A stretch of DNA of 64,000 bases from a virus (IMGVR_UViG_3300044765_000092:30679-94678); one strand, 5' to 3'. Numbered from the stretch's first letter, positions 3,751-63,783 are shown. Numbers and translations: made by a program. The notes: generated by a model not told the origin, from the letters alone.

Positions 3751-4815
3751 ATGCGCGTAAAAGAAGGCGACTACGCCATCTGTAAAGAACGACAAGAGGG
3801 ACGAAAAGACCGCACGTTCCTTATCCGAGTGGATCGCGTTAAGGAACATGCTGTGCTCGGTACGCTCGAACGCGATCCGCACATCAAGCGGGTGCAACTC
3901 GACGTCGAGACCAAGAATATCGTCTGCAATCTGGGACCGGATCCACATCCGGGTCGTGTTCATGGGATTGACACCGGGTTCCTTTACCGTAAAAGTTTCG
4001 ACCACCCGTTCTGGGGTGAGATCCATTTCTTCACTAAGCTTGACAAACTTACGATCAAGGCGTTCCGCTCAGCTTTGGACACCAGTGCGAAGATCGTGCA
4101 GAAAGCCAAGCTCCAGGAATTCACTACCTGCGTGCTGACCGAGATCAGTGCCAAGAACGGTAAGTGGGCTGGCAAGTACATTCACGGCGGTCGAGAAAAG
4201 CCGAATCGTGTGCGCTATGCTCCGGAATTCGCAGCCGGCAACCGGGCAGCAATGGAGTATGTAATCTTGCACGAGTTCGGCCACGTTGTTCGGTTCAACG
4301 GGCTGACTACTCCCAAGTGGAAAGCTCGCTGGGTCAACGCCTATCGTCGTAGTGTCGAGCCCACGGTGGTCACCAAAGACCAGCTTCGTGCGTTCCACAA
4401 GGCAGTGTTTGCCAATCCGGAAGGCAGTGCCTCGTTCACCACTGCGCTCAACGACGCTGTCGAAGACAAGGAAGACAACAAGATCGCAATGAAGGCTATC
4501 CTTCGTTGGATCAAGGATACGCACCGACTGACTGTCAAGGATCTGTCGATCCTGTATCAGTCGAAGAACATAGACGATCTGGAAAGCGTGTGGCCTACCG
4601 GGATCGTCGACACAAGCAAGCTCAAGCCTCTCATCACCGAATACGCAACGAAGAACCCCGAAGAAACGTTTGCTGAGGCGTTTGCATTTCATCTCACGGG
4701 CAAGAAGCTGCCCAAGTCAATCACCGGTCTGATGGAAGAGTCTATCAGGTACGCATCCGTCAAGGGGGTTCAGCATGAAACAGATACGAGTCCAGGAGAC
4801 AGCGGACAAACCTAG
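3751..4815 (+). CDS. zinc metallopeptidase-like protein
   Basis: HEFGH (HExxH) and downstream EYATKNPEETFAEAF. Confidence 0.7.
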   Translation: MRVKEGDYAICKERQEGRKDRTFLIRVDRVKEHAVLGTLERDPHIKRVQLDVETKNIVCNLGPDPHPGRVHGIDTGFLYRKSFDHPFWGEIHFFTKLDKLTIKAFRSALDTSAKIVQKAKLQEFTTCVLTEISAKNGKWAGKYIHGGREKPNRVRYAPEFAAGNRAAMEYVILHEFGHVVRFNGLTTPKWKARWVNAYRRSVEPTVVTKDQLRAFHKAVFANPEGSASFTTALNDAVEDKEDNKIAMKAILRWIKDTHRLTVKDLSILYQSKNIDDLESVWPTGIVDTSKLKPLITEYATKNPEETFAEAFAFHLTGKKLPKSITGLMEESIRYASVKGVQHETDTSPGDSGQT

Positions 4816-5509
4816 AACAAAGATGGTCGGTCTGAGCGACATTAAGGCACGGCGTCAATACTGGGATATGTCGAATCCACGGTGGTCACCGAAGCACACT
4901 TGTCTGAAAGTCACAAAGGGTAATGCGCTCGTCTACACGGAACTCTCGCGCGGTCTAACGGACAACTTTAAGAATTACGTGCTCACTTGGATAGCCGATC
5001 CTAGGATTGTCGACAAGCGGACAGCATTGTCTGTAGCAAAGGAGTACACCTTCGACAACAAAAATCAACAGAGTCCAGTGCGAGCGGTGTTGTCCGGAGA
5101 TTTCGAATCCAAAGGATTAACTCAAGTAGTGTTTGCTTGGGTTGAACAAAAGCTGCGTGGCCGTGGTGTTGGTCGAAAGCTATACACAATTCTGTACCGA
5201 AAGTCTAATCGTGGCCTTTTCAGCACCCCGATCAGCGAGATGAGTCGGAGTGCCTTTCTGCTTTGGTTGTCGTTATACGAAAACAATCCCAAGATGCGGA
5301 TATCTATGGGTACGCGATTCAAGGCCTACGATCCGCTCATTAAGAGTCTGAGTAAGCTCGCAACCTGCACACCGTCACCAACATCTAAGCATGACGTTCT
5401 TATCCCACGCGAGTCCCTGTCTATTTCAGCTGATTCAGCGTGGCTGAGCGACAGCGTTGACTTGTTCAGAAAACAAGGTGTGCGCTTGACTTTCGTTTGG
5501 CTGAAGTAG
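4775..5509 (+). CDS. GNAT-family acetyltransferase-like protein
   Basis: WVEQKLRGRGVGRKLY acetyl-CoA motif A; leader MKQIRVQETA. Confidence 0.6.
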   Translation: MKQIRVQETADKPRTKMVGLSDIKARRQYWDMSNPRWSPKHTCLKVTKGNALVYTELSRGLTDNFKNYVLTWIADPRIVDKRTALSVAKEYTFDNKNQQSPVRAVLSGDFESKGLTQVVFAWVEQKLRGRGVGRKLYTILYRKSNRGLFSTPISEMSRSAFLLWLSLYENNPKMRISMGTRFKAYDPLIKSLSKLATCTPSPTSKHDVLIPRESLSISADSAWLSDSVDLFRKQGVRLTFVWLK

Positions 5510-5519
5510 GAGACAATTT

Positions 5520-5924
5520 ATGACGATGACCATTCGCCAGATCCTGGCGAAAACGCCGAATGATCGTAAGATCAGGGCAAACTATGTAAAGATCACTGAG
5601 CTCAAACGCAAGGCCAACAGGGACGGCAGCACGCTGTTCCTTGCCAAATCGCATTCGTTCAAGGACAACGAAGGCAATACAAAGCGCGTCAAGGGCAACA
5701 CCTATGTGACCCAGATTCGTGCTATGGGCAAGAGCGTGATCGTCGGTTGTACGTGTGATGATTTCTGGGCGACGTGGGAGGTCGCGCTCCACAAACAGGG
5801 CGCCGCACCTATCAAGTACTCGAACGGCGAAGAGCCCAACACACGTAACCCACTCAACATTCCAGGAGCATGCAAGCATGTTTGCGCGATGGCAAACATG
5901 CTGATTCGAAAGGGATACCTGTGA
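5520..5924 (+). CDS. SWIM zinc-finger protein
   Basis: CTCDDF...ACKH; AGGAG RBS. Confidence 0.75.
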   Translation: MTMTIRQILAKTPNDRKIRANYVKITELKRKANRDGSTLFLAKSHSFKDNEGNTKRVKGNTYVTQIRAMGKSVIVGCTCDDFWATWEVALHKQGAAPIKYSNGEEPNTRNPLNIPGACKHVCAMANMLIRKGYL

Positions 5925-6979
5925 GTACCATCGCCTATCAGCACAGTCAGATGTTCGGTACCCTCAAGGGGATTACCGAACAGATTGACGTCAACCTTAC
6001 GTCCTTCCAGTATTTGTCGGTGCTAGATCGACTTGTCTACAACGCTATTGCTCCTCTTATCGAGCATACTCAGTTCTTTGACGTGTACTTGGGTCAAGTA
6101 TTGTCGTGGCAGACACGCAATCCAAAACGCAAGGCCACTGGCGTTGGACGGCAACAGTTCAGCGCCAACGTCGTTCTCTACTACCTACAGGACGATCCAG
6201 CCAAGAAGCTGAAGATCGTGCAAAAGACTAAGCTCGACAGAGGTATTCTGTTTGAGGCTCTGCGGCGTTGGCTCGATCTATGTATCGAGTACGACCAGAT
6301 CAAGGACTTACCAGCAACTCCAGATCGGATCATCCATCTGACGGAGCTGCACTCCAAACTGGCTATGCGACCCAACGGAAGTCTACACTTTGCGTTTAGT
6401 AGCTGTCGGTATTGGAACGAGCAGGCTCAGCAGTTCAAGTCCAAGATCCTCGAGAAGTATGTTCGCAAGTGCCTGATGACAGCACAACGTGACTACAAGG
6501 CGCTGCAACACCGAGTTCCACTCAACGACATCATTCAGACCTATCTGATGGTGGCGAGCAAGGCGATTGATAAGTGCGACACTGACAAGGGCGTGCTGAC
6601 AACCCACATCGAGAACTGGTTGTTGAGCGCTAAGAACGTCGTTGTGTCCACCTATCTGCAGGATGCGGCTGTGGCTGTAGCATCGGCTGCAACATCGTCA
6701 ACGACGTCAACAACGGCCAGTCGGTCTAATACTTCGGTGTCGGGTTCTGTCTCGGGCCTGACGTTGATGGAAACAGTGTCGCTCGACGAAGCCGAAGACG
6801 TGGCTGCGGAACCTGAAACAGACTACCTAGAAGAAGAGCAAGAGTTCGAGCACATGCGCCGTATCGCCAAGATCTTCGATTCTGCTGGTGTGGGTCGTAT
6901 TCTGTTGGGAGTGCAAGAGTCCCTGTCAGTGAGCGACAAGCAAGCTCTTCACGCAGTGGCCGTCATTCCACGACAGTAA
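5921..6979 (+). CDS. phage RNA polymerase sigma factor (sigma70 region 2/3-like)
   Basis: ILEKYVRKCLMTAQR...LNDIIQTYLMVASKAIDKCDTDKGVLTTHIENWL matches sigma region 2.1-2.3; later VSLDE (region 3.2-like); no obvious region 4 HTH. Confidence 0.7.
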   Translation: MSTIAYQHSQMFGTLKGITEQIDVNLTSFQYLSVLDRLVYNAIAPLIEHTQFFDVYLGQVLSWQTRNPKRKATGVGRQQFSANVVLYYLQDDPAKKLKIVQKTKLDRGILFEALRRWLDLCIEYDQIKDLPATPDRIIHLTELHSKLAMRPNGSLHFAFSSCRYWNEQAQQFKSKILEKYVRKCLMTAQRDYKALQHRVPLNDIIQTYLMVASKAIDKCDTDKGVLTTHIENWLLSAKNVVVSTYLQDAAVAVASAATSSTTSTTASRSNTSVSGSVSGLTLMETVSLDEAEDVAAEPETDYLEEEQEFEHMRRIAKIFDSAGVGRILLGVQESLSVSDKQALHAVAVIPRQ

Positions 6980-17064: not shown

Positions 17065-17726
17065 AATCACGTACAGACAACGAGTCTCGTCGATCAGCGG
17101 TCTCGGTGCCTAGACACGGTCCTGGGCGCCTGCCTGAAGAAAAGTGGATGTCGGTCACGGCTGAAGACGTTGGGTCCGGGTTCAAAGCTGCGACGTTTGA
17201 CGACCCTTCGGCTGTTGCACGACGAAAGAACACGCGGATTATCCTTGACCCCTTGCAGAAACTGCAACTGGTCAAGGTGCGTGAACAGCCGGGTCCACGG
17301 GACTCGCAGTTCCTGCACGGTGACTCGCGTTTCTTCTGCACGCTGTTCAAGAAACGCAAGCCCCAACAAAAACCAAAGCCCGATCAGCCTCCGGCTAAGA
17401 AACCGTTTGGGTCAGAGAAACCAAATCCGGTTCAGACGCAGAAGTTCAGACAGTCGCTGCGCAACAACATCCACCAAGTATCGAACTTCTTTCTTGACGA
17501 ACTCAGCCCAAAGACATTGGCGCTTGCCACATCGTTGGATCGCGTTCGCAACATAACCAGCCAGTGGATCGACGACCCGATCGATCTACCTACTCAGTTT
17601 ATTCATTCGCGGGCTATGCGTGCCGTCGAAATCCGTCTCGTTCGTTATCTGTGTCAGTATTTTGATCTTACGAAAGAAGAGTGTGCTCTCATGCTCTCTG
17701 AGTTTGATCGAAAGCTGAACTTATGA
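17061..17726 (+). CDS. hypothetical protein upstream of terL
   Basis: ATGA overlaps at both ends. Confidence 0.6.
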   Translation: MKSRTDNESRRSAVSVPRHGPGRLPEEKWMSVTAEDVGSGFKAATFDDPSAVARRKNTRIILDPLQKLQLVKVREQPGPRDSQFLHGDSRFFCTLFKKRKPQQKPKPDQPPAKKPFGSEKPNPVQTQKFRQSLRNNIHQVSNFFLDELSPKTLALATSLDRVRNITSQWIDDPIDLPTQFIHSRAMRAVEIRLVRYLCQYFDLTKEECALMLSEFDRKLNL

Positions 17727-19975
17727 CAAACGGTTTTGACGAACGCACACGAGCTTACGTCGAAGAACTTTTCGGTGTTGCTGACCGGCAGGCAGCAACT
17801 GGATCCATCGAAGACCTACCAGACGACTACAGTCCGGTAGGTCTTATTGCCTCCGAGTCAGACTTTGACTTGTCGAAGCTGGTGGACAACGCGCTGGACC
17901 CCGTGACGGGCGCTCCACGCGACATCAAAATCCCCGAGAACGATTTTCCTGAGGCGAAGAACTACTTTGACTTCTGCCTCAATTTTCAAGGACCAGATTT
18001 CCGTTTCCCGTTCATCCGGCAAATGTGGATCATGCTCATGCTATTCGGCGAAGTGTGTCCGCGTTGCACGCCCACAAAGTGGATGAACATTCACAATGTG
18101 CCAGTCGGTAAGGCTGAAGGGATCAACCAAGGTATCTCGGTCGGCAACAAGATGCAGTTGCTGGACTACGGAACATGTCCACGCTGCAAGGTCACAAAGC
18201 GTGAACTGTTCGCCAATCGTGAGCTCAAGCAGTACCGTGAACTCGCGTTGTGCGTCGGCCAACGGGGTGGTAAGTCTACGACTGTTGCGTCCGGTGCGCA
18301 GTACATGCTGCACAAGTACCTCAAGTATCCGAGGATGAGCAGTCTATGTGTCGGTATTCAGGCCAGCACTCCGCTGATGGCCACATTCGTTGGCTACCGC
18401 TTCGCCGACGCGTTCAACCTGCTTTGGGATCCGATTATCAAGAACATCGATCAGAGTCCGTGGTTCACTGACTACCACGCAATGCTCGATTTCTACGGTA
18501 AGAAGCACGGCATTGAGTTCTACCGTAAGAAGGACGTGTATCTGCGGTATGGTCATAAGAACCTGGAACTCTACCCAGCAGGCCCGTCGAAGCGAGCACT
18601 GCGCGGTCGTACGCGATGGCTTACCGCGATCGACGAACTCGGCTGGTTCCCAGTCAACGAAGGGGCGGTCAAGAAGGGCATGACACCAGAAGACAGTGAA
18701 CGCGAGCGTGCTGATGCTGACGAAGTGTGGAAAGCCCTTGACCGTTCGTTGCTGACGATGCGTGGTGAAGTGTCGAAGCTCTACGACAAGGGGTATAACA
18801 ACTTCCTGCAGGCGTATGCTTTGAACATCAGTTCGCCGTCTAGTCAATTCGACAAGATCACACGCTTGGTCAACGAAAACGAGAACAGCCGACGGACATT
18901 GGCGCTTCGTCTTGCTACGTGGCAGATCACGCCTATGTTCCCACGCGATCACGAAGAAATCGTGGACGCGTATGAGAAGGACGCTGTAGGCGCTGAGCGT
19001 GACTACGGTGCTAATCCTCCGCAGAACGATGCTGCATTCATCGACATCCAGGTGGCTGAACGTTGCTTTACTGGTCTCAATCGGGCGTCCGTCCAATTCG
19101 AGACAAAGATTGTCAAAGACAACATGCGTCGAGCTGGCTATGTCAATGCCACGAATCCAGCTCAACCGTGTCCACCGTGCGTGATGAGCATCGATGCGGG
19201 CTTGTCGAACAATAGCTTTGCCATAACGGTTCTTCATTTGGACCAACTACGAAAGAAACAGTTGGACGGCGAGCATGTGACTACACGGGTCAAAGTCCCC
19301 GTCATGCTCGAGATTCAGCCTCGACCCGGTGCGAAGCTCCATTACACGCGAATCTACGAAGCGGTGCTCAGTCCGTTGATCAAAGCGTTCAACGTGCAGT
19401 ATCTGTTTGCAGATCGTTGGAACTCGGTTGCTCTATTGGATCGCGCGGCTGACGAACATCCGCAACTTCAGAGTCAGCAGTACAGTGTTCGATACGAAGA
19501 TTTTGTGCTCACGCGCTCGTACATCGAAGAGTCCCGAATCGAGTTTCCGAAACTGGAAATGCCGACCGACAAGATCAAACGAGTTGAGGGAAAGTACCCC
19601 GACTACTTCGAAGACAGCCCGGCTGCGCACTTGTTGTTCCAACTGATGACTGTGCGAGACAAGGGCAAGACTGTCCTCAAAGGCCCCGGCTATACTGACG
19701 ACATATTTCGTGCACTGGTATTGGGACTCGGTCGACTGATGTACCCAAAGATCTACGACGATATGGTGGAAAAGGCTGCACGAATGACTCGGGGCTACAC
19801 CCTCGGTGCATTCTCTGCCGGCAGATCTGGGTTAGGTGCAGTCTACAGTTCACAACAAGCAAGCGGAGTTGCGGTCGTCAACGGGTACAGTTCGGGGCCA
19901 ATGAGGACGAATACTGGAGCTACAAACGGACAAGGGAACAGTGTTGTAGTCATCGGTACGCGCGGACCTTGTTGA
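17723..19975 (+). CDS. terL: terminase large subunit
   Basis: GQRGGKS (Walker A), LRGR, IDELG (Walker B), ISSP, RDYGA, SIDAG nuclease motif, DRWNS, TDDIF. Confidence 0.85.
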   Translation: MTNGFDERTRAYVEELFGVADRQAATGSIEDLPDDYSPVGLIASESDFDLSKLVDNALDPVTGAPRDIKIPENDFPEAKNYFDFCLNFQGPDFRFPFIRQMWIMLMLFGEVCPRCTPTKWMNIHNVPVGKAEGINQGISVGNKMQLLDYGTCPRCKVTKRELFANRELKQYRELALCVGQRGGKSTTVASGAQYMLHKYLKYPRMSSLCVGIQASTPLMATFVGYRFADAFNLLWDPIIKNIDQSPWFTDYHAMLDFYGKKHGIEFYRKKDVYLRYGHKNLELYPAGPSKRALRGRTRWLTAIDELGWFPVNEGAVKKGMTPEDSERERADADEVWKALDRSLLTMRGEVSKLYDKGYNNFLQAYALNISSPSSQFDKITRLVNENENSRRTLALRLATWQITPMFPRDHEEIVDAYEKDAVGAERDYGANPPQNDAAFIDIQVAERCFTGLNRASVQFETKIVKDNMRRAGYVNATNPAQPCPPCVMSIDAGLSNNSFAITVLHLDQLRKKQLDGEHVTTRVKVPVMLEIQPRPGAKLHYTRIYEAVLSPLIKAFNVQYLFADRWNSVALLDRAADEHPQLQSQQYSVRYEDFVLTRSYIEESRIEFPKLEMPTDKIKRVEGKYPDYFEDSPAAHLLFQLMTVRDKGKTVLKGPGYTDDIFRALVLGLGRLMYPKIYDDMVEKAARMTRGYTLGAFSAGRSGLGAVYSSQQASGVAVVNGYSSGPMRTNTGATNGQGNSVVVIGTRGPC

Positions 19976-20029: not shown

Positions 20030-20269
20030 ATGGCCCGCAGCAGCAGCACCACCAATAACACAGAACGCCGGATCCCTCAATCGATGCAGGAACCTGTGCA
20101 ACCTCAAGGTGAAACCAAGCTGGTGAGCGCTCGCTTCGAGAACACTGAAGAGGGCGTTTGCCCTGTGTGTCACGAGCCAATGAAACCGACGTCGGCCAAC
20201 GGCGTTGATTCTCTTGTCTGTTTGGCTCATCGCATCGTCATGCCTGTTCGGGATAACACCAATGTTTAA
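20030..20269 (+). CDS. small zinc-ribbon protein
   Basis: CPVC...CLAH; GGAG RBS. Confidence 0.65.
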   Translation: MARSSSTTNNTERRIPQSMQEPVQPQGETKLVSARFENTEEGVCPVCHEPMKPTSANGVDSLVCLAHRIVMPVRDNTNV

Positions 20270-22088
20270 GACTGATCGTCGGTTTAACGTCACAAGTTCG
20301 GCTCTCCGAACTACACGAGTCGGAGCCTCGGCCTCGCCAGTAACGGCAAAGGCAGGAGGCGCTGAAGTCGCCAACGTGTTTGGTCTCGGATTCGGCAACA
20401 CGAGCATGAACTTTGCGTTGGCTGGGCCGATGAACAATTGGGGTATCCTCAATCAGTTCGTTCCCGAGCAGGAGCAAGGTCTACGCCGACTGTATCGTGA
20501 TATCTACGATTACGACGCGGTGTGCGGATCGATTGTCGACATGTTGTCGGTCTTCCCGTTTTCTGACTATAGTCTTACGGGACTCGACGCTGACAAGATC
20601 GAGAAGTACGAAGAGAGTTTGCAGCGACTGAATATTCGGGCTTTGATGCCCGAGATCAGTTTGGCCCGTCTAGTTGATGGTGAGTTTGTTGGCAGTCTGA
20701 TCTTCAACGAGAAGGAGAAGGTATTCATCGATGTGATCCTCTACCCATCAGAGGATTGCCGTATCGAGGAACTGCCTCTCTACTCGATGGACCCAAAGAT
20801 CGTTGTGCGGAACAACGAAAAGTTGCGCCGCATCTTGACCAGCAACGACAAGATGGCTGTGGCTATCCGTAGTCGATTGCCTGCCAGTCTGAAGCAAGCA
20901 CTCCAAGCTCCAGCATTCGAACTGGATCCGATCACAACGTTGTACGTCTCTAGGCGCACGTTGCCGGGCCGGCCGCCAACATCGTTCCTCAAGCGTGTGC
21001 TTCCTATCTATCTGATCGAGAAGACGCTGTTCCGAGGCACGTTGACTGAAGCTACTCGTCGTCAGCGCAGTATGCTGCATGTCACAATGGGTGACGATAC
21101 ACACGAGTTCACGCCACAGGAAATGGCGGAGACCGTGAATCAGTTCCAGATGGCTGACGCTGACCCGTTGGGTGCTGTGATCGGTACCCGGGCAAACGTA
21201 CAGGCCACAGAACTCCGCCAAGGTGGTGACTTCTGGAAGTGGACTGACACGATTGACACGCTGACTCCCTACAAGCTGCGTGCTCTCGGTGTGTCGGAAG
21301 CGTTCCTCAGTGCCGATGCGACATACTCGAATGTGGAATCTGGTGTGTCGGTCTTCATGGAGAACATCGACGCGTATCGTCAGCAAATGACGTATGAGGT
21401 GTTCACCAACAAGATCTTCCCGATCATTGGTATTGCCAATGACTTCTGGAAGAAGGGCAAGGAAGTCAGCTCGGACTCGCGGAACAAGATTCTGTACCAG
21501 ATGAGCAACGCAAAGGATCTCGAGATCCCGACCGTGCGCTGGCACAAGCGCCTTGAAGCCAAGTCTGACGACAATCAGATCGACCTACTGAACACGCTGT
21601 CGGAGAAGGGATTCCCTGTGCCGCTCCGTATGTGGGCGGCGGCCGCAAAGGTCGATCTCAACACTCTTTACCACGATCTGGCAGAAGACGAGTCGATCCG
21701 CAAGAAGTTGGCGCAACTCACTGGTAAGAAACCAGAAGACTTCCTACCAAAGGACGCCAACGACGAAGGTGGTGACGAAGGTGGAGGCCAGTTCGCTTCG
21801 CTTCGTGCGCCACGTCGTAAGCCGTTGCTTGCTCGTGACTTTGGCGAGTCTGGTGAGATCAAGGGACAGACCAAGAGTGGTAAAGACAAGTATATCCTGA
21901 ACCAGAAGAAAGCTCAGCAAGAGATCAATCAGACAATCGCGCAGGCTACGGCTGCGCTTCAGGACCCGAATGTCAAGCGCGCGGCGCTCCGTCGGGTGGT
22001 TGGACAGTTGGGGCGTATCCCTGACATCATTGGAGGCTTGAACCGTGACCAGCAGCAAGCAATGCGAAACGGGTACCGGAGTATTTAA
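20262..22088 (+). CDS. portal protein
   Basis: About 608 aa after terL; LYRDIYDYDAVCGSIVD, KLRALGVSEAFLSADATYSN portal-like patterns. Confidence 0.7.
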   Translation: MFKTDRRFNVTSSALRTTRVGASASPVTAKAGGAEVANVFGLGFGNTSMNFALAGPMNNWGILNQFVPEQEQGLRRLYRDIYDYDAVCGSIVDMLSVFPFSDYSLTGLDADKIEKYEESLQRLNIRALMPEISLARLVDGEFVGSLIFNEKEKVFIDVILYPSEDCRIEELPLYSMDPKIVVRNNEKLRRILTSNDKMAVAIRSRLPASLKQALQAPAFELDPITTLYVSRRTLPGRPPTSFLKRVLPIYLIEKTLFRGTLTEATRRQRSMLHVTMGDDTHEFTPQEMAETVNQFQMADADPLGAVIGTRANVQATELRQGGDFWKWTDTIDTLTPYKLRALGVSEAFLSADATYSNVESGVSVFMENIDAYRQQMTYEVFTNKIFPIIGIANDFWKKGKEVSSDSRNKILYQMSNAKDLEIPTVRWHKRLEAKSDDNQIDLLNTLSEKGFPVPLRMWAAAAKVDLNTLYHDLAEDESIRKKLAQLTGKKPEDFLPKDANDEGGDEGGGQFASLRAPRRKPLLARDFGESGEIKGQTKSGKDKYILNQKKAQQEINQTIAQATAALQDPNVKRAALRRVVGQLGRIPDIIGGLNRDQQQAMRNGYRSI

Positions 22089-22971: not shown

Positions 22972-23697
22972 ATGAAACGCATTGAGTTAGCTACACCAGA
23001 GATTTCGTACGAGATCTACTGTACGGTGCTCGACAATCTGGGGACTGGAGCTGAGCTCGCGTTTGGCCTGCCAACCGAGCTCATCAAGTTCGGGCATGAG
23101 ATCAAAGAGATTCTGGAGCGCATCGGCGAGCGAGTGGCTGTTGGGTTTACGGACCTCATAACTGCGTTCAAGCAACGCGACGTGTTTTCCTTGCTCAAGG
23201 CCGTTCACTTCAATCTGAAGACCGTGCTGCACGCGATGCTTGAAGTATCGTCCATAATCAGCAAGGGATTGATTCATGTCTTTGAGATTCTGGCCAAGAG
23301 CAATGTGGTGCGCGCTCTTCGCGATGGTGCCACTACAGTCGACAAAGTGCTGGACGAACACCCGCTGCTGCGTAAACTCACCGGACCGGTGCTCGCGGGT
23401 TTGTTGCTGTGGATTTGGTTGTCGATGACCTTCGTTGGTGATCCACGGTTCGATATGGATCTGACAACGGCGATCGATGCGTTCAAGGGCAACTTCAGTG
23501 TTGCTGACTTGTTCACCAGCCCGTCGGGCTTGGCGATGATCGCACTGCTAGGCACTGGATTCATGGGTCTGAGCGTACCGTGGCTTGGGAGCTCGGTCTA
23601 CAATTTGATCGTAGCTCTGATCTACACCGGGTACAAAAAGCTACGTGATCGCAGAGCCAAGATCATTCAACAACAGCTTGAACTAAAGAGGTACTGA
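22972..23697 (+). CDS. hypothetical membrane-associated protein with MKRI leader
   Basis: C-terminal hydrophobic helices; starts MKRIELAT. Confidence 0.65.
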   Translation: MKRIELATPEISYEIYCTVLDNLGTGAELAFGLPTELIKFGHEIKEILERIGERVAVGFTDLITAFKQRDVFSLLKAVHFNLKTVLHAMLEVSSIISKGLIHVFEILAKSNVVRALRDGATTVDKVLDEHPLLRKLTGPVLAGLLLWIWLSMTFVGDPRFDMDLTTAIDAFKGNFSVADLFTSPSGLAMIALLGTGFMGLSVPWLGSSVYNLIVALIYTGYKKLRDRRAKIIQQQLELKRY

Positions 23698-23698
23698 C

Positions 23699-23902
23699 AT
23701 GATCGAAGACTTTCAAGACTACCTGACAGCCGCTGAGTGCTTGCCCGCTGACGCAGTGGTCAAACGTGCGTTAGAGATTGCAGTCGAAGATCCGTGGTTG
23801 TCCGGTATGTTGTGGATGATCGCGTCGCGTAAGTGCGTGGTTATGGCTGCGTCGTGTGCCGAGCGCTATGTCGATGACCTCAAGGCCCGAAACAAGCTCT
23901 GA
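23699..23902 (+). CDS. hypothetical protein
   Basis: GAGG RBS. Confidence 0.55.
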   Translation: MIEDFQDYLTAAECLPADAVVKRALEIAVEDPWLSGMLWMIASRKCVVMAASCAERYVDDLKARNKL

Positions 23903-23904
23903 CA

Positions 23905-25800
23905 ATGATGCAGATCGAACACGCCGCAGTCAACTTCAAGAACAAGTCGCTTGATCAACTCAAGCAGTTGTACATCAAGTCGAAAGACCTCTACTACAAT
24001 TCCCCAAACGGCAAGACGCTGATGTCGGACAAGGACTTCGATACGCTCGAAGACTTGATTCGTGAACAGGATCCGCGGTGGAAGGGGTTTGGTGCAGGCA
24101 TCAAGGTCAAGAAGTTCAAGGCACCACTGCCAGTGCCGATCTTTTCCCTTGATAAGATCAAGACCCAGGAAGGCCTGACTCGTTGGTTCGACAGTCTGGA
24201 GTCCGATTCCCTGGTCCTGTCTGATAAGCTGGACGGGGCTGCACTCGAGATCGTGTACACCAAGGGCGTGCCGTCCAAGGCATTTACTCGCGGCAATGGC
24301 AAGATCGGTGGCGACGTTTCGTACATCCTGCCGTATCTGCGCATTCCCCAAAAGGTGGGGACCACGAGCTTCATCATCCGGTGTGAGGGACTGTTCAGCA
24401 AGCAAGCGTTCCAGCGACACGCTCATGAATTTGATGCTGCACGCAACGCTGCATCAGGTGTGCTGAATCGTACGGACATCCACAAGGCGGTACGCGATCT
24501 GACAGTCGCGGTGATCGAAGTGTTGCAGCCACGGATCCAACCGTCCAAGGGTCTCAAGTGGGCGGCAACCAAGGGGTTCTTTGTCGTTCCGTACAAGGTG
24601 GTGCCGAAGTCCAAGCTCGACGTTGACGTGTTGTCCAAGTTGCTGGCCCGGCGTAAGGCCAACAGCAAGTTTGAGATGGATGGTCTGGTCCTGGTCGAAG
24701 ACCGAGTTCATCCAGTACCGACTGGCAACCCAGATTGGGGAATCGCCTTCAAGGAGGATCTGGCTACAGCCGACGCACCGGTCACTACTGTCGAAGAAGT
24801 GGTGTGGGCCATCAGTCCTAAAGGCAAGATCGTTCCGCGTGTTCGTGTATCGCCCGTCAAGTTCGGCGGAGCGACTGTCAAGTACGCGGCGGCATTCAAC
24901 GCCCAATTCGTGGTCAAGCACAAGCTAGGTCCCGGGGCCAAGATCGCGTTGCAGCGCAGTGGCGACATTATCCCCGACATCCTCCAGGTGGTCAAGTCAG
25001 CGAACAAGCCTCAGTTGCCGCCATCGGACATAGGCGAGTACAGCTGGGACAAGACCAAGGTCAACTTTGTACTTGTCAATCCGACGCAGAACGATACGTT
25101 CCGCCGTAAGGTAATGGCACGATTCTTCGCCCACATCGGAGTCGACTTTGTCAAGGGCGGAGCCATCTCCAAGCTATACGACGCCGGGTTTACGAACATT
25201 CGCACCATTGTCCGTGCTACACCCAAGGACTTTCTGAAAATACCTGGGGTGAAGGAAACGACAGCTAACAAGTGGTACGAGGCAATCCACAAGGTACTTG
25301 ATCAGGGAGTAGAGTTGCCACTGTTGATGGACGCGAGCGGTGTGTTTCCGCTCGGTATGGGTGAAACCCGATTCCGTGCAGTGGCCGCTCAATACGACTT
25401 GATGAAGCTGATGCAGTTGGACAAAGTGGGCATGCTGCGTAAGCTCCTTCAAGTGCCTGGCTTCCAAGCCAAGAACGCTGAAGCGTTTGTGATAGGGGCA
25501 CCAAAGTTCCTCAAGTGGCTGTCAATCACGCAGATCAAGATTGGAAAGCCAAAGACCGAGAAGACCAAACAGTCCAGCTCCAAACTATCGGGTCAAGCCG
25601 TAACATGGACTGGGTATCGGGATGCGACCCAAGAACAAACTGTCAAAGAAAATGGTGGTCAGATAGTGCCATTTGGCGGCAAGACGACAGTGCTGCTCTA
25701 CAAGGCGAGCGGCAAATCAAGCACCAAGATTCAAAAGGCACAGGACAAAGGACTCGTGGTCCTGACCTGGGATCAGTTTGTCAAGAGGTTCAAGCTATGA
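23905..25800 (+). CDS. ligA: NAD-dependent DNA ligase
   Basis: YYN..MSDKDFD (domain Ia), KLDG, TRGNG, RNAASG, DGLV, IAFK, RSGDIIP, HhH repeats, C-terminal BRCT (TWTG..). Confidence 0.92.
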   Translation: MMQIEHAAVNFKNKSLDQLKQLYIKSKDLYYNSPNGKTLMSDKDFDTLEDLIREQDPRWKGFGAGIKVKKFKAPLPVPIFSLDKIKTQEGLTRWFDSLESDSLVLSDKLDGAALEIVYTKGVPSKAFTRGNGKIGGDVSYILPYLRIPQKVGTTSFIIRCEGLFSKQAFQRHAHEFDAARNAASGVLNRTDIHKAVRDLTVAVIEVLQPRIQPSKGLKWAATKGFFVVPYKVVPKSKLDVDVLSKLLARRKANSKFEMDGLVLVEDRVHPVPTGNPDWGIAFKEDLATADAPVTTVEEVVWAISPKGKIVPRVRVSPVKFGGATVKYAAAFNAQFVVKHKLGPGAKIALQRSGDIIPDILQVVKSANKPQLPPSDIGEYSWDKTKVNFVLVNPTQNDTFRRKVMARFFAHIGVDFVKGGAISKLYDAGFTNIRTIVRATPKDFLKIPGVKETTANKWYEAIHKVLDQGVELPLLMDASGVFPLGMGETRFRAVAAQYDLMKLMQLDKVGMLRKLLQVPGFQAKNAEAFVIGAPKFLKWLSITQIKIGKPKTEKTKQSSSKLSGQAVTWTGYRDATQEQTVKENGGQIVPFGGKTTVLLYKASGKSSTKIQKAQDKGLVVLTWDQFVKRFKL

Positions 25801-26909
25801 AACGCATTGCAATTACATCGGATTGGTGGGCAGAACTGAGCCCCGAAGGCCAGAAGGAATATCTGGCCGAACACCCAGATAGCAAGAAGGCACAGGAAGT
25901 TCGTCAGGCACAGGCTCAACAACAGCATAAGCCATCGGAGAATAAGCCGGGGACCGGTATTGGACCCGAGTCGCATTCGGAAAAGCCCACGACCGAGAAG
26001 CCAGAGCACAAGGAAGCGCCAGCTCAAAAGCCTGCGGCCGAGAAAAAGGAAGGGCCGGAAAAGCCCGAGAAGCCAGAAGGTGAAAAGAAGGCTTCTCCAC
26101 CGACGGTCGAGCGCAAGGTTCCGAGCGAGATGAAAAAGCCGGAGACCGAAAAGCCAGCTGAACCTGAGACTAAGACTCCGGCTCCCGCTCCGGCCCCTGC
26201 TCCAAAGGCCGAACACAAAGATGAGGGTGAGGACAAGGGTGGTGAAGAAGCACCGTCAACCGAATCGGCACCCGACGCCCCCGCGGCTACTCCGTCTGGT
26301 CCTGTAGATCCTAAGTCGCTGCCAAAATCGGCGATGATCCACAAGCTCAAAGCCAAGATCAAGCGTTTGCACGGTCGCGACAAGGAATTCTTCGAGCAAG
26401 GTGGAGATGTTCCCAATAGTCCGCAACGCAAGAGCATTGCACAGCATGTCCGCGGCAAACACGGACTGATCATCAGCCATTTGAAGCAGCAGGCCCACGA
26501 ATGGAAGTCTGGTGTAAACGCCCTGCACAAGCTGGGTCGAGGTAAACCACTGGATGATCATGACAAGCACGCTCTCAAGTCACTGACCAAGGACTTGATT
26601 GTCACAACGGGCATGGTTGCATTTGGTGGTGGTCTGAGTCACGGTGTGATTCTGGCAGTCAAGCACATGGGTTTGGACATGATCCGTGACTCAGTGCTCA
26701 AGGCCGCGGCTCACGCAGTTGTGACCAAAGCTGCGCTCATGCATCATGTGCTTGCCACTGGTGGTGACCCAGACAAGGGTGACGCTGATTCGATCGACGA
26801 TCGTCTGATGGAAGCGCTGCTCGAAGAAGTCACCAAGTTCATTGAGAGTGGTGATATTCCAGAGGAAGCATGGTCCAAAGCCATGTCAGAGATGGATATG
26901 AAGGACTGA
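25797..26909 (+). CDS. hypothetical protein with K/E/P-rich disordered linker (probable virion internal protein)
   Basis: Start MKRIAITS at ATG 25797; WWAELSPEGQKEYLAEHPDSKKA mini-domain; PAPAPAP repeats. Confidence 0.65.
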   Translation: MKRIAITSDWWAELSPEGQKEYLAEHPDSKKAQEVRQAQAQQQHKPSENKPGTGIGPESHSEKPTTEKPEHKEAPAQKPAAEKKEGPEKPEKPEGEKKASPPTVERKVPSEMKKPETEKPAEPETKTPAPAPAPAPKAEHKDEGEDKGGEEAPSTESAPDAPAATPSGPVDPKSLPKSAMIHKLKAKIKRLHGRDKEFFEQGGDVPNSPQRKSIAQHVRGKHGLIISHLKQQAHEWKSGVNALHKLGRGKPLDDHDKHALKSLTKDLIVTTGMVAFGGGLSHGVILAVKHMGLDMIRDSVLKAAAHAVVTKAALMHHVLATGGDPDKGDADSIDDRLMEALLEEVTKFIESGDIPEEAWSKAMSEMDMKD

Positions 26910-26911
26910 TT

Positions 26912-32983: not shown

Positions 32984-32991
32984 TCAAATTA
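32984..32991 (-). promoter_or_regulatory. TAATTTGA late-promoter-like motif
   Basis: In a 60-nt intergenic gap. Confidence 0.5.
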
Positions 32992-41898: not shown

Positions 41899-42444
41899 TC
41901 AGATGTCGGTACTGACTATCGTACATTCACACCCAACGGACGGTGAGAATGTTCCAGCGGCCATGATCGCGTGCTTCAACGCTTTCACGTACTCATCGGC
42001 GTTACCGTTTTTGAATGCAGTATTGACTGACGTGTGTAGCGAGCCCAACGCATACTCGTAACCAGAGCCACAAGCGTCATAGCCCTTGACTGACCGTAGG
42101 ACCGAGAAGTCGTCTTGCATTTGCCACAGTTGACCACGCACGCCTATCAAGCAAGTTCCGCCCTTTTCATAGTCGGCGTCTTTGAGGGTCTTCTTGATGT
42201 CTCGCACAAAGACTGAGATCAACCACCTATAAACCTCGTCTTCCTCTTTGGGAATAACGGGGTCCGGTAGCCCGTGTTCAAGCAGTTGTCCGAACCTGTA
42301 GCTCGTGGTGTACCCGACCACGAGTCCGTTCTTTTTGAAGACCTTGGGTTGGGTGTGGACTACCTTATTGTTCCAACCCGTACCCTGCAGATCACCTGCA
42401 AGATACACACGTCCACTGTGCTCGATTCCTACGATACAGGTCAT
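41899..42444 (-). CDS. HslV/proteasome-like Ntn-hydrolase
   Basis: N-terminal MTCIVG, LAGD, PKVF, CGSGYEYALGSL. Confidence 0.75.
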   Translation of the reverse strand: MTCIVGIEHSGRVYLAGDLQGTGWNNKVVHTQPKVFKKNGLVVGYTTSYRFGQLLEHGLPDPVIPKEEDEVYRWLISVFVRDIKKTLKDADYEKGGTCLIGVRGQLWQMQDDFSVLRSVKGYDACGSGYEYALGSLHTSVNTAFKNGNADEYVKALKHAIMAAGTFSPSVGCECTIVSTDI

Positions 42445-57387: not shown

Positions 57388-58150
57388 CACGAAGTCTGGC
57401 TGCACGAATGACAGGTAACACCAATTGTTGATCGAGCCAGCGATCCACTTCCTTGCGCTTCGGTGTCCGTTTGCCCGGCACAACAATAGTGCCTGGAACC
57501 TTGATCGAATAGCCGACGACCGCGTGGTTTTCGTTCACGTAGCGGACCCACACTGTGATGTTTGGTGCCAGCACCTTGGACCAGCGATTGTCGACCCCTC
57601 GCAGGAATCGTGGGCTCGGTACTTGATTCAACCACTTTTCAAACGTGGGGTCCTTCACCCTGTAGAGTTCGGCCCACGATTCAAAGGTCAGCCCGGTGTC
57701 ACCACGCTTGTATTCACGGAACGCCTTGCGCACACGCACACGCTGAAAGAACCCGGTCTCGTCGAAGAATTTGACGATCGTGAGTCGGGCGCTGCGCAGA
57801 TACTCACGCACATAGTCGTTCTTGGCGCTGTCGGTGTCGTCCTTAAAGGGCGAAACACCTTCGGCTTCGCAACGACGCAGGAACTCAATGATCGCGTTGT
57901 GCCACGCCAAATCCAAAGAACCCCAGGCACGAAGCTGCTTCTTGAACTCCGGGTCCGAGACCATGGAGATCCACACCTTCTGTGACTGGGGACTGAATCG
58001 TTGAGGAAAGCCAGCAACACCGGGCCACCGGCTAAACTGCGAGCTCGGCACCCCGATGATCGATAGGTCTGTCAAGCTTTCGCTACCGCTGGATCCAGCG
58101 GCAGTGATCACCAGCACTCCGGTGTCGACCGCAATCTGGTTCATACTCAT
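57365..58150 (-). CDS. hypothetical protein
   Basis: GGAG RBS; ATGA overlap. Confidence 0.65.
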   Translation of the reverse strand: MSMNQIAVDTGVLVITAAGSSGSESLTDLSIIGVPSSQFSRWPGVAGFPQRFSPQSQKVWISMVSDPEFKKQLRAWGSLDLAWHNAIIEFLRRCEAEGVSPFKDDTDSAKNDYVREYLRSARLTIVKFFDETGFFQRVRVRKAFREYKRGDTGLTFESWAELYRVKDPTFEKWLNQVPSPRFLRGVDNRWSKVLAPNITVWVRYVNENHAVVGYSIKVPGTIVVPGKRTPKRKEVDRWLDQQLVLPVIRAARLRDVSNRLF

Positions 58151-58608
58151 AGGTTGCTCCATTCCTTCATAGACTCGCGAATGGTTTCCTCGGTGTGTGG
58201 GTCGGCCAGCAGCATCTTCACCTTTGGGTGCAGTGGTTTAGGCCAATGCCCATAGTCGACCCAACGACTGGCTGTCGACTCCCAGCTGATCTTTGGCTTG
58301 TACTGAGTTGGGACCACAACCAAGTGATTGTGGTAGTGGACATCCGGGCTCTTACTGATCCAAAGGGGCTTGACACCCAAGATCCGACCACGATATCCAG
58401 TCTCTTCCCACAATTCACGATGTAGTGCCTGCGTCAGAGTCTCGCCCTCGTCGACGCCACCACCGAACGTGCCCCAAACAGCCGGCTCTTCGACCGCGTA
58501 ACTTCGCAGGTCAAACAGGAATCGATGCGTGTCTGACGACATGAGCAACGCACCTACTGCCACATGAACGCTGCCTGTACGTGCTTGCTCGATCAAAATT
58601 CGTTTCAT
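58147..58608 (-). CDS. Nudix hydrolase with MKRI leader
   Basis: GGGVDEGETLTQALHRELWEETG; PLHP; starts MKRILIEQA. Confidence 0.9.
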   Translation of the reverse strand: MKRILIEQARTGSVHVAVGALLMSSDTHRFLFDLRSYAVEEPAVWGTFGGGVDEGETLTQALHRELWEETGYRGRILGVKPLWISKSPDVHYHNHLVVVPTQYKPKISWESTASRWVDYGHWPKPLHPKVKMLLADPHTEETIRESMKEWSNL

Positions 58609-58617: not shown

Positions 58618-58824
58618 TTAGACATGAGCCAGAATCCATGTAGCCATGTCCCACAGACCAATCATCATACCTACAGCGGCAATCGCTGCACCCAATGGTA
58701 CAAGGGTCGCGTATTTACCGCCACGACCCTCAGGGTCAGCACAGGCGATGACGCCAAAGCCGAAGACAACAATGCCAACGGCGATCATAATTGGGGACAG
58801 AAGCCACATCAGGTTGGTTCTCAC
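58618..58824 (-). CDS. small two-TM membrane protein
   Basis: Two hydrophobic helices. Confidence 0.55.
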   Translation of the reverse strand: MRTNLMWLLSPIMIAVGIVVFGFGVIACADPEGRGGKYATLVPLGAAIAAVGMMIGLWDMATWILAHV

Positions 58825-59552
58825 TTCAGAGCGTTAAACACTTTGGTCTCGACCTCCAAATACTTGGTGGTCATATCTTGCGCAAGACTCTTGGCCAGCT
58901 CTCGAAGCTCGTTGCTGTATGGCTGCAATTGATCGGGCTTGAGCATATGCTCGGTGCTCTTACGCAGACCGTGGTGCTGCGTAATCAGGTTCTGCGCTAT
59001 GTCCATGAACGCGGGTCTCAGTACTTCTTCGCAGATGTTGCGAGCAATGTGCCTGCGATCGTGGTCAGATTGAATGTCAGTTATCAGCTCTCGAATCTGG
59101 CTGATCAGCGTGACAAACGCATAGGTGCCTTTGGCACCACCGCTATCGCGCAGGAACTTCTCTGCGTCGGGCAGTACGTCGATCACAGTCTGAAGCAGTC
59201 GCTTCTTCAAGAGAGTGAGCGCACCATCATTGTCGTTGGACTCCAACATGTCAATGATGACCTGCGCATTGGCCCCAAAATTGGCAACGATCGATCGTTG
59301 TTCGCGCACGCTCAATGTGGTCGCGTTCTGGCCCGCGGCGGCTGGCAACACCGCCACAGCCCTGGATTTTACCACAGGCGCGGGTTGCTTGGTAGATTCC
59401 CTATCAGTTTGTAGGGGTTTCTGCTTCTTGGTCTTGGAGGTGACCTCGAACTCGCTGTCCTTAGACCGCTTCTTCTTGTTCAGTTTGGACCTGGGTGTCG
59501 AACTATCCACGAACGACACTTTGGGACCTGGACGAGGTTTCTTGTTCAGCAT
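58821..59552 (-). CDS. hypothetical helical protein (basic N-terminus)
   Basis: Long ORF with phage codon usage. Confidence 0.65.
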   Translation of the reverse strand: MLNKKPRPGPKVSFVDSSTPRSKLNKKKRSKDSEFEVTSKTKKQKPLQTDRESTKQPAPVVKSRAVAVLPAAAGQNATTLSVREQRSIVANFGANAQVIIDMLESNDNDGALTLLKKRLLQTVIDVLPDAEKFLRDSGGAKGTYAFVTLISQIRELITDIQSDHDRRHIARNICEEVLRPAFMDIAQNLITQHHGLRKSTEHMLKPDQLQPYSNELRELAKSLAQDMTTKYLEVETKVFNALK

Positions 59553-59565: not shown

Positions 59566-59997
59566 TCAGTCGTTGTTTAGTACGATGGTGACGAATCCAC
59601 CCGGTCCCTGGTAACAGAGAGCAGTTTCATAGTCACCCATCGGCCGCATTTTCCCGGAGCCCCCAACGTGGCTGAAGATCGCAGGTGCAGCGGCCAGTAA
59701 GCCCCGCATACTGTCAAACTTTTTGATCAGCTTTGGAACTTCGTCCACCCAGACGAACACGCCGCTATCACCTTTCACGTTGTATCCACGGGCTATAGCC
59801 AGTGCCGGCTTTCCGTTGAACGTGTACGGATCTTCGCCACGCTTTTTCTTGAGTTCAACAAAGTCATCAAACCCCGTTTCGCTGTACGCGAGCGGCTCCT
59901 CGCGTCCAAAATAGGCGCCGTACTCTAGTTCAATCACCTTACTAGGGTTTGCAGCACTGACTTTTAGTCGCGCTAGAGCTTGAGTTTTGGTCTTCAT
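59566..59997 (-). CDS. hypothetical protein with TQALARL leader
   Basis: Starts MKTKTQALARLKVSA. Confidence 0.65.
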   Translation of the reverse strand: MKTKTQALARLKVSAANPSKVIELEYGAYFGREEPLAYSETGFDDFVELKKKRGEDPYTFNGKPALAIARGYNVKGDSGVFVWVDEVPKLIKKFDSMRGLLAAAPAIFSHVGGSGKMRPMGDYETALCYQGPGGFVTIVLNND

Positions 59998-60001: not shown

Positions 60002-60283
60002 TCACCATTCCTTGAGAAGGACACGGACGTTCAACATTCCACCGCCACTGCGGAGAAACAGGATCAATTTGTGCTGAGCTAGTGCCTGATACTGAGCTAC
60101 ATTGAGTTGCAGCGAGTCGCACTCAAACTGCAAAGACTCAGATGTCGCGGTCAGATATTCGTAGCCAGAGGCGCGAGGCTTGAGGATCGTCAGCGCCTGT
60201 TGATGCCAGGGCAGTAGTTCAACCTTTCGTGCTGGCGGTCTAGCCGTTTCGCTGCTCAGTCGAGCTAGAGCCTGTGTCCTCAT
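60002..60283 (-). CDS. hypothetical protein with TQALARL leader
   Basis: Starts MRTQALARLSSETA; AAAGG RBS. Confidence 0.65.
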   Translation of the reverse strand: MRTQALARLSSETARPPARKVELLPWHQQALTILKPRASGYEYLTATSESLQFECDSLQLNVAQYQALAQHKLILFLRSGGGMLNVRVLLKEW

Positions 60284-60287: not shown

Positions 60288-60527
60288 TCAACCTTTCTTC
60301 CACTTACGTGCGTTGAGCGCGTAGTTGAGCATCTTGCGCACATGCGCGTTCTTGCTGGTCTTGAGCTTTTCCTTGATCAAGCTGACCGGAATTTTCTGTC
60401 CTTCCGGAACGCCCAGATACTTGTGCAACCGACCTTTATGCGACGGAGCGATCGATACGTCGGCCTGCTCCGTTTTTGGGTAGTCGCGCACTTCGAGGCG
60501 CAACCTCGCTAATGCTTGGGTCTTCAT
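60288..60527 (-). CDS. small basic protein with TQALARL leader
   Basis: Starts MKTQALARLRLEV; KGRLHKYLGVPEGQKIP motif. Confidence 0.65.
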   Translation of the reverse strand: MKTQALARLRLEVRDYPKTEQADVSIAPSHKGRLHKYLGVPEGQKIPVSLIKEKLKTSKNAHVRKMLNYALNARKWKKG

Positions 60528-61605: not shown

Positions 61606-61621
61606 CTTGGTACTCCTCTGA

Positions 61622-62431: not shown

Positions 62432-62441
62432 GATCGTGCTC

Positions 62442-62939: not shown

Positions 62940-62984
62940 ATCAGTCTTTCAGGGATTAGGGAAAGCGGCCTCAGATGGGCGAGA

Positions 62985-62992
62985 TTAAATTA
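62985..62992 (-). promoter_or_regulatory. TAATTTAA late-promoter-like motif
   Basis: About 45 nt upstream of start 62939. Confidence 0.45.
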
Positions 62993-63292
62993 GCTGCTTC
63001 GGCTACGTCCAGAAAGATGCGGATGGCGCCGATCATGGCAGGCTTTGCAGAGCGTTATGAGGTTTGCTTTTGTCGTGGTACCACCGCGAGACAAGGGTTT
63101 GATATGATGCACTTCGTGGTAAACACCGAGCTTCGGTTTCTCCGGTGTCTTGCACGACACACAGCAATACATGTCGCGGACCTTGACGGCCTTACTAATC
63201 TCGTACCACGATGTTCCAGCATTCTTGTTCGAATAGGAGTCACGGACAATACGCGTGACCCCACTCTTATTTCGTCGGAAGATCGGTTTCAC
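62990..63292 (-). CDS. small HNH endonuclease (HK97 gp74-like)
   Basis: VKVRDMYCCVSC...EVHHIKPLSRGG....NLITLCKACHDRRH. Confidence 0.88.
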   Translation of the reverse strand: MKPIFRRNKSGVTRIVRDSYSNKNAGTSWYEISKAVKVRDMYCCVSCKTPEKPKLGVYHEVHHIKPLSRGGTTTKANLITLCKACHDRRHPHLSGRSRSS

Positions 63293-63783
63293 TGCATCGA
63301 CCTCAGATATCGTCCAATAGTGTCCAGTGCATTTTCGTATGTTGCGACAGATACCCCATCAAGTTCCTTTATGGCCAAGTAGTGAGCTTCACCACCTAGA
63401 TCTTCGTCTTTCTCCGCCATCACGAAAGGATTCTTGTCTGGGTACTTCTTCCTAGCTAGATTGATCGATAATCTAGCTTCAACGTACTCGTGTTGCAAGG
63501 TGTGAACAATTTCCCATTCTAAGCCAGCCTTGATCAACTTATCCCAGTACGACTGTTGAAAGTAGATTGTGATAGCTCCAGTGAAATCGATCGTCCAAGT
63601 TGCTACCCAATCACCGACTGAATTGTTCTCAGTTCTATCCTTGGGGTGTCTTTCAGTTAACGAAAGACTAGTCCGCGGAAATGGCACAGTTCTAGATTTT
63701 ATGAATGGTGCGTACTTAGGTACTTGCGCTAACGAGCGCTTAAGCCACGGCGGGTAAGGTGACAGTATTTGAATACGTTTCAT
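63289..63783 (-). CDS. metallopeptidase-like protein with MKRI leader
   Basis: HEYVE...AH zinc-site-like pattern; starts MKRIQILS; lower GC. Confidence 0.5.
   Translation of the reverse strand: MKRIQILSPYPPWLKRSLAQVPKYAPFIKSRTVPFPRTSLSLTERHPKDRTENNSVGDWVATWTIDFTGAITIYFQQSYWDKLIKAGLEWEIVHTLQHEYVEARLSINLARKKYPDKNPFVMAEKDEDLGGEAHYLAIKELDGVSVATYENALDTIGRYLRSMQ

Follow-up and report, generated by a model that had tools for sequence, protein, structure and literature searches.

A short N-terminal peptide on unrelated proteins of an RSL1-like jumbo phage and its relatives, most likely a portable address tag

The stretch of viral DNA analyzed here (IMGVR_UViG_3300044765_000092:30679-94678; the window, 64,000 nucleotides in full) corresponds to bases 30,679 to 94,678 of a 238,018-bp uncultured phage genome that is about 99% complete (G000). 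Its subject is a short N-terminal peptide that heads otherwise unrelated proteins and that, as judged from sequence comparison, is most likely a clade-specific, portable address tag carried by dozens of them. Coordinates without a prefix refer to the window, those with the prefix G000 to the whole genome, and L-numbers to contigs of relatives. The DNA polymerase is 35-38% identical to its counterparts in Achromobacter phage Motura, Ralstonia phage RSL1 and Burkholderia phage BCSR5, and a megablast search with the cluster gave no nucleotide-level match to cultured phages. Gene calling by codon-usage and ribosome-binding site (RBS) scoring with interval scheduling yielded 339 genes in G000. The identical caller was applied to RSL1, BCSR5, Motura and two nearer uncultured relatives, G001 (222 kb) and G002 (249 kb), whose capsid proteins are 68-70% identical to that of G000; these are referred to below as the six genomes. 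Further relatives in IMG/VR were found via portal alignment, and scans of this database with either of two single proteins of the window, the 25797 protein and the type IB topoisomerase (TopIB), gave no matches.

Tagged genes in the window

The tagged genes fall into two clusters, one on the plus strand and a second at 57365-65693 on the minus strand. Their members in the window, including a partial one (TopIB), are as follows.

22972-23697, plus strand: 241-aa protein with the short tag MKRIELAT, transmembrane-like (TM-like) hydrophobic stretches, no family match
25797-26909, plus strand: 370-aa 'DWW' protein starting MKRIAITS, its middle PEK-rich and disordered, its C-terminal part hydrophobic
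26912-27298, plus strand: 128-aa protein starting (GTG)KRILVTAS, alternative start ATG at 26870
28467-28970, plus strand: 167-aa protein starting MKRIQTTV; its L058 orthologue starts MPIKQFHT
28973-30670, plus strand: TopIB (Pfam PF01028) starting MKTLTTAA, partial member
58147-58608, minus strand: Nudix hydrolase with the 12-residue tag MKRILIEQARTG, strong RBS, Pfam NUDIX domain from residue 15
59566-59997, minus strand: 143-aa protein with the long tag MKTKTQALARLKVSAA, body without a family match
60002-60283, minus strand: 93-aa protein with the long tag MRTQALARLSSE
60288-60527, minus strand: 79-aa protein with the long tag MKTQALARLRLE, body matching phrog_25798
63289-63783, minus strand: 164-aa protein with the short tag MKRIQILS, start overlapping the stop of the upstream gene

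A preliminary description of the window had proposed a leader shared by about 13 unrelated proteins, and all the N termini that it quoted are present at their positions. The MKRIELA of the 22972 protein recurs just outside the window, at 65666 on the minus strand. For its part, the 25797 gene starts in an ATGA overlap with the stop of the ligase gene, and its homologues in L061 and L062 lie directly 3' of the portal gene, starting ..KRAAARVTAF.. (L061) or ..VRDRLVAV... In BCSR5 the homologue is fused behind a Nudix domain, with the linker ..RAAITAALKVTAKE.. (L009 6560-8104, QRE00245.1). The tagged proteins at 22972-23697 and 25797-26909 both have TM-like stretches, as is often the case in ejection or channel-forming virion proteins. 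A start at ATG 26870 would place the KRILVTAS of the 26912 protein at residues 16-23.

The Nudix assignment of 58147-58608 (PF00293, 55.8 bits against a cutoff of 21.1) agrees with the Nudix fold of its AlphaFold2 model. Orthologues of this protein carry lineage-specific tags or N-terminal fusions. In the Motura Nudix (L008) an N-terminal domain of 140 residues contains KGKGS..LEKQW; this second recurrent N-terminal motif is also found in RSL1 ORF112 and at BCSR5 120734.

Long leaders and MKRI starts

The long form of the leader has the consensus M-x-I-(E/Q/K)-A-(A/L)-x-R-L-x-(A/V/L)-(S/T)-A; RSL1, BCSR5, Motura and two uncultured relatives each carry it on 5-17 genes. The three TQALARL leaders that the preliminary description had reported (59997, 60283 and 60527) are real and represent this phage's version of it; G000 has three further long-leader genes beyond the window: the product of that at G000 96385 is assigned to GNAT by Pfam, and those at G000 217016 and 217594 fall in the interval between tail sheath and tube. 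Each lineage shows its own variant. At least nine genes of BCSR5 start with MKIEAAARLKAS or close variants, about 17 of Motura with M-x-I-Q-A-A-x-R-L-x-A, and about nine of RSL1 with M-Y-x-I-x-A-A-V-x-R-L-x-A-T, while the leader of G001 reads M-(A/S)-I-K-x-L-A-x-A-R-L-Q-S-L-A-A. RSL1 carries its tag on ORF109, on ORF111 read from an internal Met at 60211, on genes with starts at 66626, 67803, 68122, 69428, 69735 and 77367, and on ORF210.

The leader was strongly concentrated at N termini. Over the six genomes, the pattern (A/S)-x-x-R-L-x(2,3)-(A/S/T) occurred 48 times within the first 13 residues, where its frequency at internal positions of these proteins predicts 6.4 (p = 6e-26). A leader hidden Markov model (HMM) reached 10 bits or more at 44 of 1,834 N termini and in 7 of 12,217 internal windows. 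When six-frame open reading frames (ORFs) were scanned, true members scored 9-25 bits, with a maximum of 7.7 bits for reversed decoys, and the matches above decoy have the Met of an ORF as their first residue.

In IMG/VR, 57 sites matched a degenerate DNA pattern of the tag, most of them MKIEAA-x-RL starts of real ORFs with an RBS, and these sites were concentrated on contigs with a related portal (up to eight per contig). In uncultured relatives the MKIEAA-x-RL tag heads a homospermidine-synthase-like enzyme, a DEDD exonuclease and a Nudix protein; RSL1's own homospermidine synthase is without the tag. Tagged genes of such relatives lie at:

L171 361-1800, plus strand
L165 3236-3859, minus strand
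L188 799-1266, plus strand

The MKRI starts were evaluated separately. Both strands of the 238-kb genome together contain 12 copies of (ATG/GTG/TTG)-K-R-I, about 10 of them at ORF starts. After correction of starts on the basis of RBS, translational coupling or domain evidence, nine of the 339 genes begin with MKRI, against 0.35 expected from shuffles in which positions 3 and 4 were exchanged among genes, with the position-2 Lys excess from ATGA overlaps retained; in none of 20,000 such shuffles did any 4-mer reach nine. Conservative gene calls alone gave five MKRI genes (P = 0.0027). Start/stop-overlap bias, which the preliminary description had named as the explanation that would undo its proposal, does not account for these numbers, since the Lys excess was kept in the comparison. 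Two of the nine genes encode ordinary signal peptides, and the other seven are confined to two places, 22972-28970 (plus strand) and 58147-65693 (minus strand). Their MKRI codons vary synonymously (AAA/AAG, CGC/CGA/CGT, ATT/ATC/ATA). Just outside the window, at G000 96144-96371 on the minus strand (window coordinates 65666-65693), a frame for a coiled-coil-like protein of 66-75 aa contains two MKRI starts nine codons apart, MKRIHGECE and then MKRIELAD.

MKRI looks like a short form of the tag, M-K-R-I-x-h-(T/S)-(A/S), and from the sequences the MKRI set probably belongs to the same system as the long leader. A common core R-(L/I)-x-h-(T/S)-(A/S) is proposed, comprising RILVTA and RIAITS among the short forms here, RLRVTA and RLLVTS in RSL1, and RLKVSA among the long forms here; this core is what the relatives support, the Ala or Ser in which the preliminary description had most leaders end being a product of its own parsing. 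MKRIELA also resembles the long form MKTEAQARLELA at G000 96385. The nearest relatives carry short classes of their own in the corresponding clusters, such as M-(A/S)-I-(K/Q), found about 17 times in G001, and the L058 starts MAIRKLELAQ, MAIKHLEVHAS and MGIKQLKVTAA bridge the short and long forms. In orthologues of the 'DWW' protein and of TopIB the offset of the motif from the Met varies, from 3 to 25 residues.

Against joining the two forms, the long-form HMM gives the MKRI genes no score above decoys, and the link between them therefore rests on resemblance and on the bridging variants. It is conceivable, though rather unlikely, that only the long A-A-x-R-L leader is functional and that MKRI reflects ordinary N-terminal bias inflated by the choice of starts, arising from position-2 Lys in ATGA overlaps, a basic-hydrophobic start or a first beta-strand; this explanation overlaps the others weighed below. 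The HMM result and the two plain signal peptides are in agreement with it, as are the four of nine MKRI genes that hinge on start codons not picked by the gene caller and the failure of three proposed members (the ligase and the 4775 and 30670 proteins). It is opposed by the Lys-preserving shuffles (0.35 against 5-9 observed), by the confinement of all non-signal MKRI genes to the two tag clusters, by the short classes with bridging variants at corresponding places in G001 and L058, and by the MKRI peptide of the Nudix protein, which is predicted to lie outside the fold.

The failed or doubtful members are the following.

23905-25800, plus strand: NAD-dependent DNA ligase starting MMQIEHAA, not a member
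4775-5509, plus strand: 244-aa protein starting MKQIRVQETA, in the early/replication block, doubtful member
30670-31083, plus strand: 137-aa protein starting MQQIIVLSAG, no homologues, doubtful member

Of the membership first proposed, the MKRI enrichment and the TQALARL leaders are real, the latter as part of a larger pattern to which the MKRI set probably also belongs; these three genes were not confirmed. The ligase was rejected, MMQIEHAA being kept by none of its six closer orthologues and its resemblance to the tag being due to chance. The leaders at 4775 and 30670 resemble the tag too weakly to score. The 4775 gene is surrounded by TGTAAATG sites, and its product, earlier described as a GNAT, receives no such call from Pfam; it gave no Pfam or PHROG match, and no homologues were found. 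TopIB was retained in part: before their first conserved helix, seven orthologues keep h-T-A-(A/S) and nothing else of the leader, at a variable distance from the Met. As had been stated, the replisome genes and the second Nudix gene (33750) are without the leader.

Cargo bodies, codon choice and fold

The proteins behind the tag are unrelated to one another. Past residue 18, 20 tagged proteins of BCSR5 and Motura showed no mutual BLASTP similarity, except for one cross-genome orthologue pair, and paralogy was rejected on the basis of these dissimilar bodies. Recognizable cargos include Nudix, GNAT and DEDD exonuclease proteins, a saccharopine-dehydrogenase/homospermidine-synthase-like enzyme and DUF3175, with many small proteins of no recognizable family besides. 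The Pfam domains of the cargos each begin at residue 15-24, directly behind the tag.

Similar boundaries were seen in the AlphaFold2 models. In the window Nudix (mean predicted local distance difference test score, pLDDT, of 84), residues 1-12 have a pLDDT below 50 and no secondary structure, and the first strand spans residues 15-24. The same was observed for residues 1-16 of a tagged 420-aa protein at G000 105822. A fold search with the latter gave no PDB match, and an ESM Atlas look-up of G000 102873 was uninformative. According to these models, the tag is a separate extension outside the cargo fold. The idea of a portable N-terminal tag on unrelated proteins has thus held up, with a peptide conserved throughout the clade and lying outside the fold by both AlphaFold2 and Pfam boundaries.

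Selection on the tag acts at the peptide level. Third codon positions within it carry 0.04-0.3 bit and first and second positions 1.2-2.0 bit; its Arg is encoded as CGN and AGR, and its Leu as CTN and TTR. An RNA-level element over the first codons, such as a translational operator or a ribosome-loading site, would make the peptide likeness a by-product, and it would fit the fact that the motif always takes in the start codon. In phages, translational repressors are known to bind initiation regions. This explanation is nonetheless largely refuted by the codon data and is highly improbable: the freedom of the third positions rules out an RNA operator, the upstream sequences share only an ordinary RBS, and the motif shifts relative to the Met in orthologues.

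Genomic context and proposed function

The tagged genes are embedded in morphogenesis modules. The neighboring genes that define this context are:

17723-19975: terminase large subunit, upstream of the first tag cluster
20262-22088, plus strand: portal protein, 41% identical to the Motura portal, with the first tag cluster just downstream
58821-59519, minus strand: scaffold-like protein with a K-rich N terminus and a helical domain, within the second tag cluster
G000 211550-212608: major capsid protein (phrog_2522, E = 4e-83), no delta domain

The second cluster runs on, on the same strand, into a connector-like gene (phrog_17327), a virion structural gene (phrog_3758) and two core-protein genes. 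All six genomes have tagged genes grouped with the connector-like gene, and further ones beside the portal gene, bordering the capsid operon and just past the tail sheath gene. A small tagged gene lies directly 3' of the portal gene in RSL1, BCSR5, Motura, L089 and L106. The homologue of the scaffold-like gene is within the cluster in G001 and adjoins the portal gene in RSL1, BCSR5 and Motura.

Two upstream motifs were distinguished. About 36 copies of the first, CTGTAAATGA, precede replication and early genes, and one lies at 22894; the window contains 8 copies against 1.35 expected, a significant excess. The second, GTAATTTGA, occurs 12 times genome-wide, 30-170 nt upstream of portal, capsid-operon, tail-fiber, TopIB and two core genes; its three occurrences in the window (19986, 28883 and 32984-32991), against 1.03 expected, are not significant in the window alone. 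Its distribution makes GTAATTTGA a candidate late promoter that differs from the CTGTAAATGA sites. A TAATTTGA site lies 90 nt upstream of TopIB, at 28883. The second cluster contains no TGTAAATG site, and TAATTTGA sites precede the two core genes. One core protein of the clade, encoded at G000 107141-108406 (L050 13141-14406, minus strand), has four invariant Cys residues and its own TAATTTGA site; this protein (RSL1 ORF115 family) was considered as a capsid protein and rejected, being a zinc-finger (CxxCxGxG) core protein.

The reading that fits best, possible if not quite probable, is that the tag loads proteins into the virus head; it draws on these sequence data and on analogy with T4. We infer that the tag would dock the cargo to the inside of the assembling procapsid via scaffold, portal or shell; the docked cargo would be packaged together with the DNA, as T4 internal proteins are via their capsid-targeting sequence (CTS); the tag might be trimmed at its small-residue end, h-x-A|(S/T/A), and the cargo ejected into the host. 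The capsid protein offers a possible parallel, since in nine relatives a variable start of 9-18 residues is followed by a conserved P-(V/M)-x-A-(A)|(S/T)-E-(Y/F); this site resembles the tag ends h-x-A|(S/T/A), the motif being short. A 560-aa protein of the capsid operon starts ..RVTAA| or ..KVAAA|. A wider proposal, that any gene with the clade tag, long or MKRI-type, encodes a head-packaged, co-injected effector and that the tag is read by a head-assembly partner and a protease of unrecognized type, is rather doubtful. As part of it, the Nudix, GNAT, exonuclease, TopIB-associated and small fast-evolving proteins would be immediate anti-defense or takeover factors.

Several observations weigh against head loading. 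In G000, G001 and BCSR5 some tagged genes belong to the tail module, being placed between sheath and tube, and the operon starting at 22972 is preceded by a replication-type TGTAAATG motif, not by a late-type one. The homospermidine-synthase-like cargo is odd for a capsid. By itself, h-T-A is barely enriched at N termini, and the candidate cleavage motif is low in information. Genome-wide searches for a Pfam S77 or S78 prohead protease gave no match even at E <= 1, a divergent protease being possible, and two candidate proteases were rejected: the HslV-like peptidases described below, as a conserved tag protease, for having no homologue in RSL1, BCSR5 or Motura, and a 268-aa gene after the capsid and scaffold-like genes, whose six-genome alignment lacks a conserved His/Ser pair. 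Searches of the available literature found no description of the tag, no virion proteome and no cleavage data.

The position of tagged genes directly 3' of the portal gene, and between the sheath and tube genes in those same three genomes, would also be expected if the peptide were a general docking signal of virion assembly that plugs accessory proteins onto the portal, neck or tail, with neither entry into the head interior nor ejection. We regard this as unlikely, since many of the cargos are soluble enzymes (Nudix, GNAT, exonuclease) for which a structural role is not apparent and since a genome has 5-17 different cargos.

The assemblin-type protease invoked for the tag in the preliminary description found no backing, either in Pfam S77/S78 or in the HslV-like peptidases, which are not conserved in the relatives. 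The latter are two HslV-family homologues (phrog_1040), at 41899-42444 (minus strand) in the window and at G000 98293-98712 (minus strand), one of them beside the connector-like gene. No radical-SAM/SPASM-type maturase beside tagged genes was among the Pfam and PHROG results for the clusters. The sole conserved enzyme near the tagged genes is a SprT-like protease:

27289-28194, plus strand: SprT-like zinc metalloprotease (Pfam PF10263, 38 bits), inside the first cluster, one gene from TopIB

Homologues are present in BCSR5, Motura, G001 and G002, so that five of the six genomes, G000 included, have one inside or near the clusters; none was detected in RSL1 by BLASTP. This zincin could be a candidate tag peptidase, and a role as a partner of TopIB in the repair of TopIB-DNA crosslinks may explain it equally well or better.

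The tag might, then, be a cytoplasmic signal for proteolysis or processing, unrelated to packaging, either as a degron or as a site for the SprT-like or a host protease. N-terminal recognition signals for AAA+ proteases exist, the SprT-like gene lies in or near the clusters in most of the genomes, and the phage encodes two HslV-like peptidases. Such a signal is nevertheless quite unlikely to be what the tag is: SprT adjoins TopIB, so that crosslink repair accounts for it at least as well, and it is missing from the RSL1 search; the HslV homologues are not conserved; and a degron leaves the embedding of tagged genes in head and neck operons unexplained.

The kind of system envisaged under head loading is known from T4, whose CTS is the sole conserved part of otherwise diverse internal proteins (PMC3012670). 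Like the CTS of IPI, IPII, IPIII and Alt (PMC3012670; Mullaney and Black 1996, cited in PMC10052503), the leader is a peptide of about 10 residues at the extreme N terminus of diverse proteins. The tagged proteins, like the T4 internal proteins, are fast-evolving and partly enzymatic, and their genes lie near, though not exclusively in, head operons. The two differ in sequence, MKTYQEFIAE in T4, and in the cut motif, (L/I)-x-E in T4 and a predicted h-x-A|(S/T/A) here. Moreover, no gp21 protease (Pfam S77) is detectable here, and the 5-17 cargos per genome are far more numerous than in T4. The leader appears to be a new family of this known kind, in a clade with three cultured members.

In giant phages such as SPN3US, many head proteins are packaged and are processed at a motif that they share (PMC10052503). 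The phages compared here resemble phiKZ and SPN3US in being jumbo myoviruses with T=27 heads, and, if their tags are trimmed as proposed, would also resemble them in the cutting of many head-internal proteins at a common short motif, A-x-E in phiKZ/SPN3US, that is also present in the capsid protein (PMC10052503, PMC5694885). The propeptides of phiKZ and SPN3US are long and dissimilar and share only the cut motif, whereas here the likeness takes in the whole leader of 8-14 residues. There is no relationship between the two clades, and a prohead protease makes the cut in theirs, with none identified in the RSL1-like clade.

Two further systems invite comparison. The cargo peptides of encapsulins and bacterial microcompartments are short and probably helical and direct unrelated enzymes into a shell without being cleaved; encapsulin shells share the HK97 fold with phage capsids. 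Unlike the leader, the peptides of family-1 encapsulins are C-terminal and have another consensus, and there is no sign here of a nonviral compartment. In herpesviruses, the maturation and release sites of assemblin are (V/L)-x-A|S, and many tags, like the capsid N terminus, end in V-T-A|S, L-K-A|S or V-L-A|T. This likeness extends to three residues only, and Pfam recognized no assemblin/HK97-type protease gene here.

If the tag is a head-loading signal, the injected proteins of a whole clade of soil and plant-pathogen jumbo phages could be listed from sequence alone, and the list would point to candidate anti-defense factors acting ahead of phage gene expression. It would likewise imply an unrecognized maturation protease or docking partner and would make available a short, portable peptide with which foreign proteins could be packaged into large capsids, a use to which the T4 CTS is put today. 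Even if the function differs, a tag of 8-14 residues on 5-17 unrelated proteins per genome would constitute an undescribed sorting or recognition system, directly testable in the culturable phages RSL1, BCSR5 and Motura.

Elsewhere in the window, at 40149-40965, where a group I intron splitting sbcD had been described, the gene calls show fragments at 39384-40097 and 40963-41214 around an ORF of HNH size.

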